DNA of 32,000 bases from Candidatus Saccharimonadota bacterium (GTDB lineage: Bacteria; Pseudomonadota; Gammaproteobacteria; Enterobacterales; Enterobacteriaceae), in assembly GCA_000217635.1 (NCBI GenBank), contig CP001817.1, positions 30,001-62,000 of the forward strand, given 5' to 3'. Both the position numbers and the translations under genes were made by a program. Position 1 is the first letter of the stretch. Each line of letters opens with the position of its first letter. The notes beneath the pieces are model-generated. The model was not told the origin of the DNA. It did not search any database and saw nothing but the letters and a program-made list of their open reading frames with translations. Below are positions 3,376 to 30,205 of this stretch, piece by piece.

Positions 3376-3447
3376 AGCGGACAGTGGGGATCGAACCCAC
3401 ATTATCAGCTTGGAAGGCTGAAGTAATATCCATTATACGATGTCCGC
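3376..3447 (-). tRNA. glyT: tRNA-Gly (anticodon UCC)
   Basis: The reverse complement GCGGACATCGTATAATGGATATTACTTCAGCCTTCCAAGCTGATAATGTGGGTTCGATCCCCACTGTCCGCT is nearly identical in layout to E. coli glyT. Anticodon stem is TCAGC/GCTGA and loop is CT-TCC-AA. No CCA is encoded. Confidence 0.93.
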
Positions 3448-3476
3448 ATGATATAATATAGTATATTGGTTTTTTT

Positions 3477-3558
3477 TGGTGGGAGAAGGATTCGAACCTT
3501 CGAAGTCTATGACGTCAGATTTACAGTCTGCTCCCTTTAACCACTCGGGCATCCCACC
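3477..3558 (-). tRNA. tyrU: tRNA-Tyr (anticodon GUA), long variable arm
   Basis: The reverse complement GGTGGGATGCCCGAGTGGTTAAAGGGAGCAGACTGTAAATCTGACGTCATAGACTTCGAAGGTTCGAATCCTTCTCCCACCA has anticodon loop CT-GTA-AA and a class II variable arm. No CCA is encoded. Confidence 0.93.
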
Positions 3559-3560
3559 TT

Positions 3561-3633
<73 letters not shown>

Positions 3634-4441
3634 TTTTTTAAAAAATCCTATTTCTTTTTACTATAGAAATTATTATATTATTGAATAATATTTAATTATC
3701 ATATTTATTTTAATAAAAGTCAACTTTTTTTTATTTTTAGATAATATTAAAAATTTTTAATATATATATTTCAATATAAGATATTTATATTATAAATATA
3801 TATTTATATGATAGTTAATATATATAATATATAATCTTTTTTATAATATAAAATTTTATCTATCAGAATATTGATATATTATAAGTCAATAGTAATTTGA
3901 TTTGTTCTATAAATTTATATTATATATTTATATAATTTATATTATTAAAATATCTATTTTTATTATTTTTTTATATATTTAATAAACTTACTTAATATTT
4001 ATTTTTTTATATAAAAATTTATATTAAAATATGTCTAATTAATTATTTGATTAATTGAATTAAGAAATTTTATTTTAATCATTTTTTTAAGAATAATTAT
4101 CTTATAATTAACAATTAATATACCAATTATTATTTTTTTAATAAATATATTTTGAAAAGTTTTATATGAATATAATAGTATTCTTACAAAAAAATTTTAT
4201 GTATTAAATATATAATAAGGTATTTTTTTATAAATTAATATATTTTAAATTTTTTAATAATATTAGTTTGGTTAATAATTCTATTTTACTTTAATTATTT
4301 ATGATTTTTTGCTTTTTTAATATTTTATAATATAAGTTTTATATAATAAATAAAAATTACTTGTATAATTAATGAAATTATTCTTGATTTTTTATTTGTT
4401 AATAATAGTAATAGAATTTTTTTCCATTTAATGAGGTATTT

Positions 4442-21134: not shown

Positions 21135-22844
21135 ATGGAAATGAAAAATAAAATTATTGCAAAAGAAGATATTAAATATTGGGATAATATTTTTTTGTTA
21201 TTTATTAAAAAATTTTCAATTTTTTATGATTAGTTTTTCTGTTTTTTTATCTTTTATAATTGTATTTTTTTTATGGTTTAATACAATTAATTATGTTGTG
21301 TTATATAATCATTTGTCTGATAAAGATGAATTTTGGGTAATATCACAATTGCAATCTATGAAAATTCCATATAAATTTAATAATATTACTGGAGCTCTTT
21401 TAGTTCCGGAAAATAAAATACATGAGTTACGTTTTCAATTATTAAATAATAATTTAAATAAAGAAAAAATTTATGGTTTTGATTTTTTAAATAATGATAA
21501 ATTTAATGTAGGTCAATTTAATGAAAATTTAAATTATCATCGAGGATTAGAAGGTGAATTATCAAAAACGTTAATGAATATTTTTCCTATTAAATATGCT
21601 CGCGTACATTTATCTTATCAAAAAGATACTAATTTTTTACAAAAAAAAGAGATACCATCAGTCTCTATTGTAATTACTTTGTACCCTAATACTTGTTTAA
21701 AAAAAAATCAAGTCAATTCCATTATTTCCCTAATTACAGGTAGTATAACTAATTTATCTTCGGATCATATTGTAATTGTTGATCAAAATGGAACTTTATT
21801 AAATCAATTATTTTTAAATAAAAAACGATTTTTTAATAATAATATACAAAAACACGCAGATTTTTTAAAAGATTATTATTGGAATCGTATTAACAAAGCT
21901 TTAAAGCCTCTTTTGGGTTCGAAAAATTTTTTTATTCAAATTACTCCGTATATTATGTCATATGTAAAAAAAAATAATATGATATATAAAAATAAAAAAA
22001 ATAAAAGTAAAGCTGTTAATCTATTAAATTTAGTTCCGGATTATTTAAATAATTTAGGAATTTCAAAAAAAAATAATTCTTTAAAAAATATTTCTTCGCA
22101 TAATATATCTAAAAATATTAATGATGTTAATCTGATAAAGGTAAATAAAAATATTAATTCTAAAGCTATTACTAAAAATTATATAATTAATAAAGAACAT
22201 TCAGGAAACTTCAATACATCAAAATTGATAGATCATAGTCAATTTAATAATAATAACGTATATATGAAAAAAAATCATATAATAACGCGTGATGTAAATT
22301 TTTATGAACGTATATTAAATAATAAATTTATTCATTTTTCAATTAAAATATTAGCGAATTACAAAAAAAATGATTTAGGGATTTTAGTTCCATTGACAGA
22401 AAAAGAAAAAGAAAATATTAAAACGATTATTAAGTCAGTAGTAAACTTTTCACATAAACATGGAGATATTTTAGAAATAATAAATATGTTATTTTTTCAA
22501 CCTCATAAATCTACTCATATGTATTCTTTATTTGATTATAAAAATTTTTTTATATCTTATAAATGGACTTTTGTTTTTTTATTTTTATTTCTTTTTTTCT
22601 TTTTTGTGTTAAGAAAAATTTTTTTAATATATATAAAAAGAAATAATATAATGAAAAAAGAACCATTAAAAAATAAAGATAATTTATCTACAGTTTTTGT
22701 TACACAAAAATTATGTTCTACAGAGGTAAAAGAAAAAAATATTTTATTAAATTCACAATATTTTTTTAAAAATAAAAAAAATTGGATATTGATCCTAAAA
22801 TTATCGCAAAAGTTCTTCGGTTATGGATGAAAAATAAAAAATGA
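21135..22844 (+). CDS. fliF: flagellar MS-ring protein FliF; 3' end frameshifted in an A8 tract (22774-22781), 5' start ambiguous (ATG 21135 + shift, TTG 21157, or ATG 21226)
   Basis: The body aligns with E. coli FliF (NHLSDKDEFWVISQLQSMKIPYKF vs SNLSDQDGGAIVAQLTQMNIPYRF; FNENLNYHRGLEGELSKT vs FSEQVNYQRALEGELART; ARVHL). The track ORF ends ...NWILILKLSQKFFGYG*, but the -1 frame after the A8 tract reads LDIDPKIIAKVLRLWMKNKK*, matching E. coli DNDPRVVALVIRQWMSNDHE. That frame ends in an ATGA overlap with fliG. Confidence 0.9.
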
Positions 22845-23813
22845 AATTAAATAATATTCAAAAAAGTGCGCTTTTTCTGATGTCTATCGATATTAATGAA
22901 GCTGTACAAACCTTAGAATATTTTTCTGAAAAAGAAATTTTTCAATTAACACAAGCTATGTTATCTCTCGATACTCGAGAATCTTATAATATTTCGAATA
23001 TAAAAAAAGAATTTTATTATTTTTTAAAGGAGAATAATATTTCTTATTTTAATATTCAGAAAAATATATCTGTATTAATACAAAAAAGGTTAGGTAAAAA
23101 AAAAGGATGCATATTTTTGCAAGATAGTTTATTAAAAATGTCTATTCAAAAAAAGATTGTTTTTTTAGAAAAATTAGATATTCATGATCTATTTTTTTTA
23201 ATTTTTAAGGAACATGAACAAATAATTACAGTTTTATTAATATATTTTTCTAAACTAATATCAGCTAAATTATTATTATTATTTAATTTTAAAAAACGAT
23301 CTATTTTTTTAATAGGCATAGAAAATTTTATAGCGTTAAGTAAAAAAGGTTTGTTAGAATTTAATAAAATTCTTAGAAATTTAATAGAAAAATATACAAA
23401 ATCTGTGATGATTAAAAAAAATACTAAACATATTGTAGGAATTTTACAGTCTTTTGATAAAAAAAATATAAAAGATATTTTAAATAACATTAATAGGGTA
23501 GATAAAAAATTAGTATATAAAATAAATAGTCTTTTGTTTGATTGGAGTGATTTAATTAATATTAGTGATTATGATATTAAATTTATTATTCAAAATATTG
23601 ATATAAAAATATTATATAAAGGATTAAAAGAAATAGATGATGTTATAATTAATAGATTTTATAAAAATTTTTCAGAGTTACAAAAAAAATATTTTTATAA
23701 AAAAAATATAAAAATAAAAATATTTCTAATGTTCAATTCTCTATATTTAAAAAAAATTATTTAATATTATTAAAAATTTTATAAAATTAGGAAAAATATT
23801 TATAAATCAATAA
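22841..23813 (+). CDS. fliG: flagellar rotor/switch protein FliG; C-terminal about 40 codons spread over three frames by two A8 tracts (23699-23706, 23749-23756); track ORF ends at 23764
   Basis: The N-terminus KSALFLMSIDINEAVQTLEYFSEKEIFQLTQAM aligns with E. coli [33 protein letters not shown]. After the first tract the -1 frame gives NISNVQFSIF (cf. RLSQVENEQKA). After the second tract a further -1 frame gives LFNIIKNFIKLGKIFINQ* (cf. ILLIVRRLAETGEMVIG). Confidence 0.85.
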
Positions 23814-23825
23814 TAGGTAATATGT

Positions 23826-24509
23826 ATGAATAACTCTATAAAAAAAAAAAATTGGAAACATTGGAGTCCCGATTCATTATCATCACATCATCCAAAACAT
23901 ATTTTACCTCAAAGATTAAGTATAATAAAAAATACTTCAATTAATATTGATAAACAAAAAAAATTAACGAAAAAAATGTTAAAAAAATACTTGAAAGGGT
24001 ATAAAATTGGATTTGATCAAGGTTATAAAAGTGGATGGTTTCAAGGTTTTAATTCCATTACTCAATCTCATTTTAATAATTATGAAAAATATTTAAAAAT
24101 TTATTTTTTAAATATATTAAAAGAATTTAACAAATCTATTGATGATTTAGACAGTAAAGTAGAGCTAAAAATATTAAAAATAATAGTGACAATATCTAAA
24201 ATTATTTTTTCTAAAACATTATTAATTAATACAACAATAATATTAGATAAAATAAAAAATATAATACAATGTATTAAAAATTCATTAAAAAATCCTAAAC
24301 TATTCATTCATCCATTAAAAAGAAAATTGATCGAAGAAAAATTTGGTACGTTATTAAAATTATACAATTGGAAATTAATAGATGATATGAAAATTAATAT
24401 AAATAGTTGTTATATTCTTACTGATGAAGGTGAAGTAGATGCTACAGTAGAACGGTGTTGGAATGAAATAGAAAGTATATTACTTTTACGGAATGATAAA
24501 AAAATATGA
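23826..24509 (+). CDS. fliH: flagellar export ATPase regulator FliH
   Basis: 227-aa ORF. WKHWSPDSL matches E. coli WKTWTPDDL. The GYxxGxxxG repeats and the C-terminal EGEVDATVERCWNEI (cf. EGDLDASVATRWQEL) are present. It carries an in-frame A12 tract at 23840-23851. Confidence 0.9.
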   Translation: MNNSIKKKNWKHWSPDSLSSHHPKHILPQRLSIIKNTSINIDKQKKLTKKMLKKYLKGYKIGFDQGYKSGWFQGFNSITQSHFNNYEKYLKIYFLNILKEFNKSIDDLDSKVELKILKIIVTISKIIFSKTLLINTTIILDKIKNIIQCIKNSLKNPKLFIHPLKRKLIEEKFGTLLKLYNWKLIDDMKININSCYILTDEGEVDATVERCWNEIESILLLRNDKKI

Positions 24510-25903: not shown

Positions 25904-26361
25904 ATGAAAAGTAGTTATTTAAAAACATTACTATATTTAAAAAAAAATCTCAATTGTCGATTAGAAAAAATATGTATATAATAAAAGATTATGTAGATAA
26001 AAAAAAAATTTTTAATCAAATATTACAATTAAAAAAATATTATGATGAATATTATAATAATTTATATAAATCTCTTATTCATAAGGGAATTATTCAGTAT
26101 CAAGTGAAAGTATATAGAAAATTTCTATATATGTTACAAACGGTTATTTTAAAGCAACAACAATATATTGCATATTATAATAAACAATTAAGTATTACTC
26201 GAAACTTACATAAAAATATGTATATGTATTTTAAAAAATTGTGTATTTTAGAGTCACATATATATCAAAATATACGAAGAATTATGATATTAAAGGAACA
26301 ACGTATATCTGATATTTTAATTGAATCATTTTCATATATTAAAAAAATATTAAATAAGTAA
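25904..26361 (+). CDS. fliJ: flagellar export chaperone/stalk protein FliJ; 5' end in a different frame, joined through an A9 (25939-25947) or A6 (25965-25970) tract; track ORF starts at TTG 25954
   Basis: AGGAAAAG + ATG 25904 opens MKSSYLKTLLYLKKNLNCRLEKICI* (cf. E. coli ALATLKDLAEKEVEDAARLL). The track frame continues ...LQLKKYYDEYYNNL (cf. LKMLIDYQNEYRNNL). The joined length of about 152 aa fits FliJ (147 aa), and the position after fliI fits. Confidence 0.7.
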
Positions 26362-26540
26362 TGATTTATATATTTATAAAAATAAGAAAAAAAATTTATT
26401 ATATATTGCGTTTATTTTGTATTTTATATTTTATAATATATATTATATAACTCTCTGATTTTTAAAATCTATTTGAAAAACTTTAAAAAATATTATTTAT
26501 TTGCGAGGTAATATGTTAAAAAAAATTTTTTTTAAATGAT

Positions 26541-27494
26541 ATGAAATTAATTTATGATAATATTCAATTTTCATATCAAAAAAGTTCTATAAATTTAGAT
26601 AATAAAAATATTTCAGATTTTCAGAATAGTGAGTTATTAAAAAAATTTTTATTAAATAGAAAAATTTCATCTTTTAAAAATTTATATGATAATTTATCTT
26701 TAATGTTTAAAAATATATTTAAAAAAAATTTATCTATATTATTTGAATTTACTTATTTATATTTTGAGTATAATAATCAATATCATATAAAACAAATATT
26801 AGTAGAAGAAGAAAGTAATATTTTTCAGTTAAGTCATTCAAAAGAATATTGCATATTAATGGTGCCTCATAATTTTTTTTCTATTTGCACTTATGTTTTA
26901 TTTGGGGGGGGTAACTTAGTTATATATAAAAAACATATATATGATAGTAATAAAATTAATAATCATTTAATTATAAATACTGTATTTGAATCTTTATTTA
27001 TAACAATTAATAGTTTTTTAAAAAAATTTTTTTGTTGTTCTATTAAATATATTTTTAAAAATCAATGTACTACAAAAAATTTTTTTAAAAATAATACTTT
27101 AGATGATTATTTGTTTTTTTTATTTCAAGTGACTTATAAAAATATTAAAGATGTGATTAAAATTTGTATACCGAAAAGTATTTTGTATCATATATCTTTC
27201 AAACCGTATCATAATTATCTTATTTTTAAAAAAAATATTAAAAATATTTGGAATAAAAAAATAGAACATAATATAAAATCGTATATCATATCTTTAAAAG
27301 TAAATGTAATAAGTTATACGATATCATTATCTTATTTTTTAAATTTAAAGGTAGGTGATATATTTTACATTAAAATAATAAAAGATGTATTTGGTTTTAT
27401 TAATGGACAATTATTTTTATTAGGAAAATATGGTATATATCATGGTTATCGTTCATTATATTTTAAACAATTTATTAATAAAGAGGATAAATAT
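26541..27494 (+). CDS. fliM: flagellar C-ring protein FliM-like segment; no stop codon before fliN, so it reads through in frame (single 454-aa ORF 26541..27905)
   Basis: VPHNFFSICTYVLFGGGN aligns with E. coli FSPSLVFIAVDNLFGGDG. LSYFLNLKVGDIFYI...INGQLFLLGKYGIYHGYRSLYFKQFIN aligns with LSQILKLNPGDVLPI...VDGVPVLTSQYGTLNGQYALRIEHLIN. No CheY-binding LSQAEIDALL-type N-terminus is seen. Confidence 0.85.
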
Positions 27495-27905
27495 ATGGAA
27501 CAGAAAGGTTCTATCATGGTTTCAAAAGATAATGAATCTATTATAGAAAAAATAATAAATCAAGAACAAAAGAATAATAAAACATGTAAAAATAAATTAT
27601 TGAATCAAGAGAAATTATTAGATAATATCTCTAAATCTAAAAGTAATTTTTTAGATTTTATAAAAAAAATGAAACCTTTTATGGATATTCCTATTGCTAT
27701 TAAAATTGAATTAGGTACAAAAAAATTAAGTTTAAAAAAACTTTTAAAATTATCTGAAGGATCAATCATTCAATTAAATCAAACAGATACAGTTCCATTA
27801 AAAATATTTATTAATAATTATTTCCTAGCATTAGGGGAATTAGTAATGATTAACGAAGAATATGGGGTACGTATTATAAAGCTTATAGAAAACGTAGTAA
27901 TATAA
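27495..27905 (+). CDS. fliN: flagellar C-ring/export-gate protein FliN (own RBS and ATG, in frame with upstream fliM)
   Basis: AAGAGGA (27481-27487) lies 7 nt upstream of ATG 27495. MDIPIAIKIELGTKKLSLKKLLKLSEGSIIQLNQTDTVPLKIFINNYFLALGELVMINEEYGVRI aligns with E. coli MDIPVKLTVELGRTRMTIKELLRLSQGSVVALDGLAGEPLDILINGYLIAQGEVVVVADKYGVRI. Confidence 0.92.
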   Translation: MEQKGSIMVSKDNESIIEKIINQEQKNNKTCKNKLLNQEKLLDNISKSKSNFLDFIKKMKPFMDIPIAIKIELGTKKLSLKKLLKLSEGSIIQLNQTDTVPLKIFINNYFLALGELVMINEEYGVRIIKLIENVVI

Positions 27906-27981: not shown

Positions 27982-28254
27982 ATGACTAATAATCAATTGA
28001 TATATCATTTTACACACGCGTTACTCTATGTTTTAGTGATTATTTTTGTAATTTTTTTTTTATATAAAACAATCAATAACTTTAAAAATATAGAACAAGA
28101 TGAAGCAATATATATTGTTGATAGAATTTATTTAAATTCTTCTCATTTTATTTGCGTAGTAAAAATCTATAATAAAAATTTTGTATTAGCTGTTACGCCA
28201 TATAAAATTACTATTTTACATATATCCTCAAAATTAAAAAAACACTCTGATTAA
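27982..28254 (+). CDS. fliO: probable flagellar export-gate assembly protein FliO
   Basis: 90-aa ORF between fliN and fliP with one N-terminal TM helix (LLYVLVIIFVIFFLY). IYIVDRIYLNSSHFICVVKIYNKNFVLAVTPYKITILHISSKL resembles E. coli FliO LKISASASLGARERVVVVDVEDARLVLGVTAGQINLLHKL. Confidence 0.6.
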   Translation: MTNNQLIYHFTHALLYVLVIIFVIFFLYKTINNFKNIEQDEAIYIVDRIYLNSSHFICVVKIYNKNFVLAVTPYKITILHISSKLKKHSD

Positions 28255-28334
28255 AGAGATAATCAAAGTTATTTTAAAAAAATATATTAAGTATCAATAA
28301 AACAAATTTTCAATAAATTTAGGTAAAATATTTA

Positions 28335-29075
28335 ATGTTTATTAAATTAACGAGTTTATTTTTTTTTATTGCACTATATCCTTCTATATCGTCTGCTACT
28401 GTTTCTTTTGAATCGATGTTTCATTTAATTAATCAAGGTACAAATTTTTGGACGTTTTCTATCGAAACATTTATTTTTTTTACGTTACTAAGTTTTATTT
28501 CGGCAGGTTTGTTAATGATGACTAGTTTTACTCGGATTATTATTGTATTTAGTTTATTAAGAAATGCATTAGGTACACCATATTCTCCTCCTAATCAAGT
28601 TCTTGTAGGACTTTCTTTATTTCTTACGTTTTTTATTATGTCACCTGTTCTTGATAAAATTTATCATACAGCCTATATTCCTTTTCAGAAAGAAAATATT
28701 AGTTTAGAAATTGCATTAAAACGTTCTATTATCCCTATACATAATTTTATGAAACGGCAAACTAAATCTTCCGATTTATTGCTATTTTTTGATTTAGCAA
28801 AAATTCCATATGTTAAAAAAAAATCACTAATTCCTATGAGAATTTTATTACCAGCTTATATGATTAGTGAGTTAAAAACCGCTTTTCAAATTGGTTTTAC
28901 AATTTTTATACCTTTTTTAATTATTGATTTAGTGGTTGCCAGCGTATTAATGGCTTTAGGTATGATGATGGTTTCACCTTCTACAATTTCTTTACCATTT
29001 AAGTTAATTTTATTTGTTTTAGCCGATGGTTGGCGTTTATTAATTATGTCATTATCTCAAAGTTTTTTAACTTAA
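28335..29075 (+). CDS. fliP: flagellar export-gate protein FliP
   Basis: 246-aa [50 protein letters not shown] and [46 protein letters not shown] are nearly identical to E. coli FliP. Confidence 0.97.
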
Positions 29076-29159: not shown

Positions 29160-29435
29160 ATGAATCAAGAATTTATTATACAATTATTACATTCATCTGT
29201 TAAAGTGGGGTTATTATTGTCTGCGCCGTTTTTACTGGCTACATTAATTAGTGGATTGATTATTAGTATTTTTCAAGCAGTGACTCAAATTAATGAACAA
29301 ACATTATCTTTTATACCAAAAATAATTTCGGTTTTTATTTCAGGAATTATTTTTGGGCCCTGGATGTTAAAAGTTATGATTGATTATATGCAAAATATTT
29401 TTCGTGTAGTACCAAAAATTGTTTTATTAATATGA
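29160..29435 (+). CDS. fliQ: flagellar export-gate protein FliQ
   Basis: 91-aa ORF. ISGLIISIFQAVTQINEQTLSFIPKIISVF aligns with E. coli VTGLIISILQAATQINEMTLSFIPKIIAVF. Confidence 0.96.
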   Translation: MNQEFIIQLLHSSVKVGLLLSAPFLLATLISGLIISIFQAVTQINEQTLSFIPKIISVFISGIIFGPWMLKVMIDYMQNIFRVVPKIVLLI

Positions 29436-30205
29436 ATAATTTTATTGTTAGTATTTTTTTATCATGTATTAATAGTTATATTATATTAATTATGACGCGA
29501 ATTTTTGCATTTTTTTGTTTTTCTTCTATATTTAACAATAAAAATATTCCCGTGGTAATAAAAATTGTATTTACATATAGTATTGCTATTTTTTTATTTC
29601 CATTACTTTCTTGTAGAAATTCTATTAATTTTAATGTTGATTTTTTATTTTTATTAGTATATCAAATTTTTATAGGTCTAGTACTTGGTTTATCAATTCA
29701 GTGTGTATTTGTATGTGTATATTTAACCGGAGAAATAATTAGTTCTCAAATAGGATTATCGTTTTCTATTTTTTTTGATCTTAACGAATATACTCAATCA
29801 TTAGTAATCTCACGTTTTTTAAATATTTTTCTTTTTTGTTTTTTTTATGCTATAGATGGTCATCTTTGGATAATTAAAATTTTAATTAAAAGTTTTAGAA
29901 AATTTCCTTTAATGCAACCTAATATTAATAAAAATTTATTAATATCTTTGTTATATTTTTCTAATGTTATTTTTTTTAATGGACTTTTATTAAGTTTACC
30001 AATTTTATTTTTTTTATTAATAATTCAAATTATTTTAGCTGTATTAAATAGAATGATGCCTCAAGTATCATTATTTTCTATTTTTTTTCCTGCTATTTTA
30101 ATAGCAGGTATTTTTATTTTAAAAACTTTTGTTATATTTTTATTTCCGGTATTTTTTTCATTTTTTGATTATGTCTTAAAATATCTATTATTACTAATGT
30201 CATAA
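29432..30205 (+). CDS. fliR: flagellar export-gate protein FliR
   Basis: 257-aa polytopic ORF with an ATGA overlap to fliQ. TGEIISSQIGLSF, DGHLWII and LAVLNRMMPQVSLFSI match E. coli FliR (AGEIIGLQMGLSF, NGHLWLI, LGLLNRMAPQLSVFVI). Confidence 0.93.
   Translation: MNNFIVSIFLSCINSYIILIMTRIFAFFCFSSIFNNKNIPVVIKIVFTYSIAIFLFPLLSCRNSINFNVDFLFLLVYQIFIGLVLGLSIQCVFVCVYLTGEIISSQIGLSFSIFFDLNEYTQSLVISRFLNIFLFCFFYAIDGHLWIIKILIKSFRKFPLMQPNINKNLLISLLYFSNVIFFNGLLLSLPILFFLLIIQIILAVLNRMMPQVSLFSIFFPAILIAGIFILKTFVIFLFPVFFSFFDYVLKYLLLLMS

Follow-up and report, generated by a model that had tools for sequence, protein, structure and literature searches.

The 32,000-nucleotide (nt) stretch analysed here (positions 30,001 to 62,000 of contig CP001817.1, called the window below) carries a flagellar gene cluster in which fliM and fliN form one continuous reading frame. 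The cluster runs fliF (21157-22830), fliG, fliH, fliI, fliJ, a 454-amino-acid (aa) open reading frame (ORF), a fliO-like gene, fliP, fliQ and fliR, and rpmG, rpmB and ppa adjoin it downstream on the minus strand. With fliF, G, H, I and J on its 5' side and fliO, P, Q and R on its 3' side, the 454-aa ORF occupies the place of a FliM-type gene. The gene content of the cluster is restricted to basal-body and export genes (fliF, G, H, I, J, M/N, O, P, Q, R). The base composition of the window is about 17-24% G+C, ligA and gltX are also present, and the nearest named relative of the fused ORF's own database entry is Buchnera aphidicola. The organism is a Buchnera aphidicola-type aphid endosymbiont of the Cinara-associated group, with a small genome. 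To our knowledge, Buchnera lacks the genes for filament, stator and chemotaxis.

An earlier reading of the letters alone (the sequence-only reading) had described one ORF, 26541..27905, in which FliM is followed by FliN from M319 with no stop at the junction. The sequence, the ORF list and the domain matches all agree with this description. The junction reads ...GYRSLYFKQFINKEDKY-MEQKGSIMVSKDNE... without an in-frame stop, and the peptides EDKYMEQK and YMEQKGSIMVSK span it. No separate fliN ORF was found in the ORF list, where the FliN region is read only within the 454-aa frame. At this base composition 0.11 stops per codon are expected, which puts the probability of 454 open codons at about 1e-23; across the same interval, the other two frames are interrupted by 55 and 65 stops. 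The computed mass of the product, 53.9 kDa, lies close to the roughly 53 kDa that had been estimated.

The domain content was established from family models, structures and a predicted fold. The NCBIfam FliM model TIGR01397 matches aa 47-302 (model positions 58-309 of 320, E 1.3e-19) with 70.5 bits, below its cutoff of 219.6, and the NCBIfam FliN model TIGR02480 matches aa 377-450 with 76.1 bits, slightly under its cutoff of 84.05. Pfam PF01052 (FliMN_C, SpoA) gives two stretches in the ORF, the FliN-type one with 84.3 bits (cutoff 23.8). When a profile built from the fused family was searched against the PDB, it aligned to Salmonella FliM (8umd_C) over aa 33-313 (E 2.4e-31) and to FliN (8umd_D) over aa 366-445. 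The FliG-contacting, CheC-like middle domain of FliM is present according to TIGR01397, 8umd_C and Foldseek matches to 4FHR, 2HP7 and 4GC8 (probability 1.0). The C-terminal SpoA domain of FliM is likewise present (PF01052, strands 249-311 of an AlphaFold2 (AF2) model, alignment to the FliM half of 4YXB), as is that of FliN, which superposes on Salmonella FliN chains with a root-mean-square deviation of 1.2-1.5 A in Foldseek. In the AF2 model the FliM middle domain and first SpoA domain (SpoA1) are followed by a disordered stretch at 313-368, with a predicted local distance difference test (pLDDT) below 50, and then by the second SpoA domain (SpoA2, 384-448). By sequence and fold together, the best PDB matches are 4YXB and 4YXC, the Salmonella FliM(SPOA)::FliN construct (profile E 1.9e-50; TM-score 0.74-0.80), and cryo-EM C-ring FliM and FliN chains rank next. 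The CheY-P-binding motif (LSQxEIDALL) was not found at the N-terminus of the fused ORF, MKLIYDNIQFSYQK..., and the TIGR01397 match begins only at model position 58; the missing motif fits an organism without chemotaxis. The fused ORF is thus FliM plus FliN by domain content and synteny, minus the CheY-binding N-terminus. The features are collected in the table.

Table. Features of the fused fliM-fliN gene and its surroundings (positions in the window; SD, Shine-Dalgarno; dN/dS, ratio of nonsynonymous to synonymous substitution rates; uORF, upstream ORF)
Feature	Position	Strand	Evidence
Fused fliM-fliN ORF, 454 aa + stop, predicted 53.9 kDa	26541..27905	+	Sequence, ORF list, domain matches, fused orthologues
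FliM portion, aa ~33-313: CheC-like middle domain (aa ~47-215) and SpoA1 (aa ~246-313)	26637..27479	+	TIGR01397, 8umd_C, AF2, Foldseek
Junction and linker, aa 314-376, former FliN N-terminal region; predicted disordered, protein-level drift roughly neutral	27480..27668	+	pLDDT, dN/dS
SD-like AAGAGGA, ancestral fliN ribosome-binding site inside the ORF (codons AAA GAG GAT)	27481..27487	+	Homologous to E. coli GAGGAA upstream of fliN
Internal ATG (M319), ancestral fliN start; product 136 aa, 15.6 kDa	27495..27497	+	Sequence, Met conservation
Second in-frame ATG (M326) after AAAGGT (27504-27509); putative alternative FliN start, 129 aa, 14.8 kDa	27516..27518	+	SD energy -3.8
FliN SpoA domain (SpoA2), aa 377-450, best-conserved part of the ORF	27669..27890	+	TIGR02480 aa 377-450, PF01052 aa 380-449, dN/dS ~0.2
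GAGG (26505-26508), then 8-codon uORF MLKKIFFK* (ATG 26513 to TGA 26539) with A8 and T8 runs	26505..26539	+	Sequence, SD energies
fliJ, upstream neighbour of the fused ORF	25954..26361	+	Family-model matches
fliO-like gene, 90 aa, downstream neighbour, then fliP, fliQ, fliR	27982..28254	+	Family-model matches

A homopolymer miscall that removed the fliM stop or shifted the frame would give the same appearance, and the sequence-only reading had itself warned of an undetected indel, citing an out-of-frame TAA at 27475-27477. Such a stop exists, although at 27476-27478, and the genome is rich in A/T homopolymers. However, 27262-27661 is free of homopolymers of 7 nt or more, and comparison of the junction in related genomes, which had been proposed as a check, bore the fusion out. 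A protein search returned four other fused orthologues of 431-455 aa with 47-59% identity to the window ORF. They stem from independent NCBI, ENA and Logan assemblies, the junction is in frame in every one, and the fused protein of one relative was recovered identically from three separate samples. WP_075431683.1 [Buchnera aphidicola] is as long as the window protein and 58% identical over 100% of its length. The gene order fliI-fliJ-[fusion]-fliO-fliP-fliQ-fliR-rpmG-rpmB-ppa is common to the window and the fused relatives. Since the same fused ORF is found in four diverged and independently assembled relatives, the fusion is old and not an assembly error: it is genuine, anciently fixed and in frame. 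The artefact reading is effectively refuted, and we leave it almost no probability. The indel caveat was right as evolutionary history and wrong as a worry about sequencing errors.

How the frames merged can be traced in the relatives. In E. coli K-12, as the sequence-only reading had stated, fliM and fliN are separate genes that overlap in different frames; the overlap is 4 nt (ATGA), and the GAGGAA of fliN lies inside fliM, 9 nt before it. In the window, GAGGA is followed after 7 nt by an in-frame ATG; this spacing, shorter than the 9 nt of E. coli, is consistent with an indel among the final fliM codons that merged the two frames. The Buchnera of Brevicoryne has separate fliM and fliN genes with an 8-nt overlap, that of Lipaphis has them fused, and the two junctions differ by a 1-nt deletion that lies beside an A-run, 17 nt before the fliN ATG. 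The Lipaphis fusion leaves the SD sequence TAAGGAA and the fliN ATG untouched. E. coli and the unfused Buchnera still show the ancestral layout, with the fliN SD and ATG within the last fliM codons and with overlapping stop and start, from which a small indel in these codons shifted fliM into the fliN frame. At least two junction types, DKEN-TL-M and K-IRNAF-M, occur among the Aphidinae fusions, as judged from protein sequences. The difference between them points to a different indel, downstream of the SD, and implies at least two independent fusion events in Aphidinae.

An exhaustive profile search added further full-length fused proteins, all from Buchnera, among them WP_343126587.1, two metagenomic sequences and the proteins of the strains from Lipaphis (QCI21971.1) and Muscaphis stroyani (QCI24186.1). 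Across Buchnera, fused forms of 433-473 aa are interspersed with unfused ones of 306-328 aa. A search that started from the Lipaphis protein gave the same picture among closely related Aphidinae strains (433-443 aa fused, 306-327 aa unfused); the closest protein to the fused Lipaphis one is the unfused FliM of Brevicoryne, at 68% identity. Separate FliM (37 kDa) and FliN (15 kDa) proteins have been reported for strain APS (PMC8109811). The fusion is probably a nearly neutral, easily toggled change and not a designed innovation. A peptide-pattern scan of genome contigs returned only an unrelated FliN-domain match in Syntrophomonas, and tblastn against plasmids only FliN-domain matches in misfiled chromosomes. 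One E. coli-type FliM of 423 aa (P0047) contains an exact internal duplication of about 90 residues (LVNPPLENSRNEDQNW...RIEHL twice), which probably reflects an oddity of the assembly or a tandem duplication and has no connection with the Buchnera fusion. In the relative L006, a member of the fused clade, fliH is called in two pieces (52 + 160 aa) and the fliJ region in small fragments (1317-2014, 3390-3843), which indicates that neighbouring flagellar genes are eroding there while the fliM-fliN fusion stays intact.

A rough FliP/Q/R tree groups the window with L002/L004 and L006, with Cinara strobi and C. curvipes as sister group. In these sister lineages (L008 2241-3402 and L011 2161-3387, respectively) fliM ends after the middle domain, with lengths of 209 and 236 aa, its SpoA domain has given way to some 130 nt of non-coding DNA, and fliN stands alone with its own SD. 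FliM is thus eroding in these two lineages, with FliN kept. The comparison is based on the C. curvipes alignment and on ORF translations; a tblastn alignment between the FliM part and C. strobi L008 was disregarded because its frame differs from the called ORF.

This erosion raises the question of whether the upstream 318 codons of the window ORF are themselves a dispensable remnant, so that only an internally started FliN matters and the fusion is a by-product of decay. An absence of fliM has been reported for a C. cedri strain (PMC3246468) and for Cerataphidini Buchnera, and the FliM match of the window ORF stays under the NCBIfam cutoff. The fliM ATG has no SD (+1.7) and stands behind a broken N-terminus: the stop of the short uORF lies 1 nt before it. 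The same layout recurs in L002 and L003 with a different frame offset, and in L007 the equivalent N-terminus is in frame. The uORF is probably the severed old FliM N-terminus, now likely a translational-coupling element or else a slippage-prone site. However, the 318 fliM codons are open in five lineages in DNA of 17% GC, where the stop frequency given above makes this improbable already for one lineage (P ~1e-16). In addition, the dN/dS of FliM is below 1, SpoA1 of the window retains 47-66% identity to that of its relatives, and the FliM fold is still recognised by Foldseek. We therefore consider a decaying fliM distinctly unlikely.

Inside the fused ORF, the former start signals of fliN are still in place. 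AAGAGGA and the M319 ATG lie at the positions given in the sequence-only reading, separated by 7 nt (TAAATAT). Its claim that this internal ribosome-binding site and ATG are preserved holds across the window clade, and Met stands at the FliN N-terminus in 13 of the 14 fused Buchnera proteins examined. The fourteenth has a GTG with AAGGAA, as found at the FliN start of the L016 fusion. The anti-SD duplex energy at the junction ATG is -5.8 kcal/mol, a strength equalled or exceeded by only 3 of 26 gene starts in the window and by 7% of its 135 internal in-frame ATGs. In every fused gene whose DNA was compared, including the independent fusions, the junction start ranks first or second among the in-frame ATGs. 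The independent fusions have SDs of their own (AAGGAA at -6.2 in Lipaphis, CAGGAG at -6.9 in L012, and one at -5.7 with long spacing in L015).

Other in-frame ATGs were considered as well. The M326 ATG is also found in L006, and the single ATG of L007 aligns to M326 at the protein level. M436 has a strong SD (-6.4), but this is the conserved LGE motif and the codon lies 19 codons from the stop, an implausible start. M377 and M381 are conserved FliN residues without an SD.

Two further observations bear on whether these signals are under selection. Within the window clade, four lineages have GAG as the SD-forming codon and one has CAG (G-ending in 5/5), although codons ending in G account for only 7-23% of Glu/Gln usage in these genomes. 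In the same clade, the linker (aa 314-376) has a dN/dS of 0.9-1.5, compared to about 0.2 for the FliN SpoA and 0.4-0.75 for the FliM parts; the synonymous rates (NG86) are distorted by the extreme AT bias, so that these ratios are meaningful only relative to each other, which has to be held against the argument. Constraint on the amino acids hardly accounts for an ATG and a G-rich patch that are kept in a neutrally drifting linker. Selection thus apparently preserves the internal SD and ATG, as far as patterns of conservation can tell.

Our preferred reading is that the fusion is genuine and old and that the gene makes both the 53.9-kDa FliM-FliN protein and, through the internal start, a free FliN of 15.6 kDa. 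We lean towards this reading with some reserve. The long product consists of FliM (middle domain and SpoA1), a flexible linker of about 60 residues and FliN (SpoA2). Its two SpoA domains can pair with each other in a single chain, like those of the Salmonella FliM(SPOA)::FliN crystal structure. The old ribosome-binding site and start codon of fliN would survive inside the ORF and still be used. One fusion protein and two free FliN would then supply the unit of one FliM SpoA and three FliN SpoA domains of the C-ring or sorting platform. The same logic would apply as in the injectisome, where full-length SctQ is joined by two copies of SctQ-C. Since filament, stator and chemotaxis are missing in Buchnera, the fusion would serve docking of the export gate and not switching.

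Published work on Salmonella and on injectisomes bears on this proposal. The sequence-only reading had cited the Salmonella fusion of Kihara et al. as assembling into a working switch complex. Some function was indeed kept, but the summary in PMC4832279 describes a mutant expressing only the fusion, with C-rings that were few and fragmented, which was complemented by FliN and not by FliM; the crystallised version also lacks the FliN start. The same paper calls the fusion-only mutant a direct mimic of SctQ, and describes full-length SctQ with two internally initiated SctQ-C as a building block equivalent to FliM:FliN3 (PMC4832279). YscQ M218A, which lacks the internal product, neither assembles nor secretes (PMC4295842), and HrcQ behaves similarly to YscQ (PMC8553256). 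That the Salmonella mutant was rescued by FliN only and that SctQ needs its internally initiated product both strengthen the reading with two products.

Several points weigh against it. The case for the second product, free FliN, is drawn from conservation at the sequence level. Of the five clade members, three (L002, L003 and L007) have a weak SD (GAGAA/GAGAAG, -2.9 kcal/mol), although genuine starts in this DNA typically lie in that range (median -3.5). In principle, Glu and Met might also be conserved for the sake of the amino acids themselves. The SD codon was picked post hoc for the codon-bias argument, and the lineages of the clade share ancestry and are not fully independent. The AF2 model is of modest confidence (pLDDT 62, alignment of 10 sequences). 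Finally, the fusion-only Salmonella mutant was still partly functional, so that the need for free FliN may not be absolute.

Some of these points would also fit a gene that makes the fusion protein only. The internal SD and ATG would then be unused, all FliN would reside in the 54-kDa chain, and an export-only basal body would tolerate a FliM:FliN ratio of 1:1. The weak SDs and the C-rings that the fusion-only Salmonella mutant still formed, according to the summary in PMC4832279, are in line with this possibility, as is the relaxed selection on Buchnera flagellar parts seen in the FliM ratios. However, it leaves the retention of start codon and SD in all fused lineages, independent fusions included, within a linker that drifts neutrally around them, as well as that of the rare G-ending codon, to be explained, and the solved C-rings and SctQ complexes need extra free SpoA dimers. 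We regard a fusion-only gene as unlikely, and favour the production of both fusion and free FliN.

Neither fliK nor fliL is present in the approximately 180 nt between fliJ and fliM (26362-26540), a position where a fliK-like gene (Flg_hook domain) still lies in the Buchnera of Lipaphis and Brevicoryne and in the relative L016. FliG is short (307 aa, 22841-23764), and its C-terminal domain covers only positions 2-71 of the 108-position Pfam FliG_C model. Its torque-generating end may be truncated, which would fit a non-rotating basal body. Stop/start overlaps of 4 nt are found at fliH/fliI (24506-24509) and fliQ/fliR (29432-29435), the same kind of junction that a one-base indel can fuse. The fliO and fliP genes are separate in the window (27982-29075). 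Several Aphidinae-type Buchnera have them as a single ORF with both FliO and FliP Pfam domains (L009 4519-5505, L016 4426-5553, L017 2858-3948), a second recurrent fusion within the operon that also contains fliM-fliN.

Fused fliM-fliN genes are already in the databases under varied names (FliN, FliM, 'FliM/FliN family', hypothetical), and because of this inconsistent naming, gene-content comparisons can miscount fliM or fliN as lost. A figure legend in a 2023 preprint states that fliM and fliN "often occurred as fused genes" in Buchnera (bioRxiv 10.1101/2022.08.28.505559). As the fusion is recurrent, annotated by NCBI and mentioned in that legend, its novelty is lowered; our search of open-access papers and bioRxiv turned up nothing on the retained internal start or on a parallel with SctQ. 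The finding is real, conserved and mechanistically sensible and only modestly new, one member of a recurrent and already noticed class that arises from single-nt indels at overlapping stop and start codons. With a one-nucleotide origin, it does not represent a new kind of system. Should both products be made, Buchnera would provide natural, repeated experiments on how much of the FliM:FliN stoichiometry can be hard-wired, with a bearing on the drift of the C-ring toward an injectisome-like sorting platform after the loss of motility.

Among known systems, the closest are the annotated Buchnera fusions ('FliM/FliN family flagellar motor switch protein': WP_075431683.1, QCI21971.1, QCI24186.1, WP_343126587.1), which share the gene pair, the synteny and the in-frame junction. 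There is no difference in kind, and the window ORF is one more member of this group. The fliO-fliP fusion of Buchnera also joins an adjacent pair of flagellar export genes repeatedly, but the pair is a different one and is separate in the window. The Salmonella FliM-FliN fusion (Kihara et al. 1996; PDB 4YXB, 4YXC) has the same colinear chain of FliM SpoA, FliN N-terminal region and FliN SpoA. However, the crystallised construct joins ...NEEQPK to NNPSDEN and thereby lacks the first residues and the start of FliN, so that the mutant made only the fusion and needed added FliN. The Buchnera genes, in contrast, are natural, have been fixed over long evolutionary time and keep the SD and ATG.

FliY of Bacillus and Thermotoga, with a CheC-like phosphatase domain and a FliN-type SpoA, is also a larger switch protein that ends in a FliN-type SpoA. 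It has one SpoA domain, whereas the window ORF has two and the N-terminal part of FliM. The FliY models match only aa ~333-451 and score far below their cutoffs (NF005995, 74.6 bits vs 218; NF006272, 45.7 vs 219), and an identity with FliY was rejected.

The injectisome protein SctQ (YscQ, Spa33, SpaO/SsaQ, HrcQ) is encoded, like the window protein, by one ORF with a FliM-like N-terminal part, SpoA1 and SpoA2. Its internal start yields a free SpoA2 protein in a ratio of one full-length to two short chains; the counterpart in Buchnera consists of sequence signals, the conserved SD and ATG. Unlike SctQ, the window ORF has a linker of about 60 residues between the SpoA domains, the former FliN N-terminus. 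Orthology to SctQ was rejected: TIGR02551 matches no more than the SpoA2 part, with 43.3 bits (cutoff 100.8), the neighbours are the flagellar genes fliF to fliR, and the ORF descends from fliM and fliN. The window ORF would thus resemble SctQ in its working, not in its descent. We see roughly even chances that the export-only apparatus of Buchnera has repeatedly and independently recreated the SctQ gene design, with a fusion and an internally started FliN at 1:2, selection on the start and states that toggle by single-nt indels. If so, Buchnera would offer a living replay of the step by which FliM and FliN are thought to correspond to SctQ.

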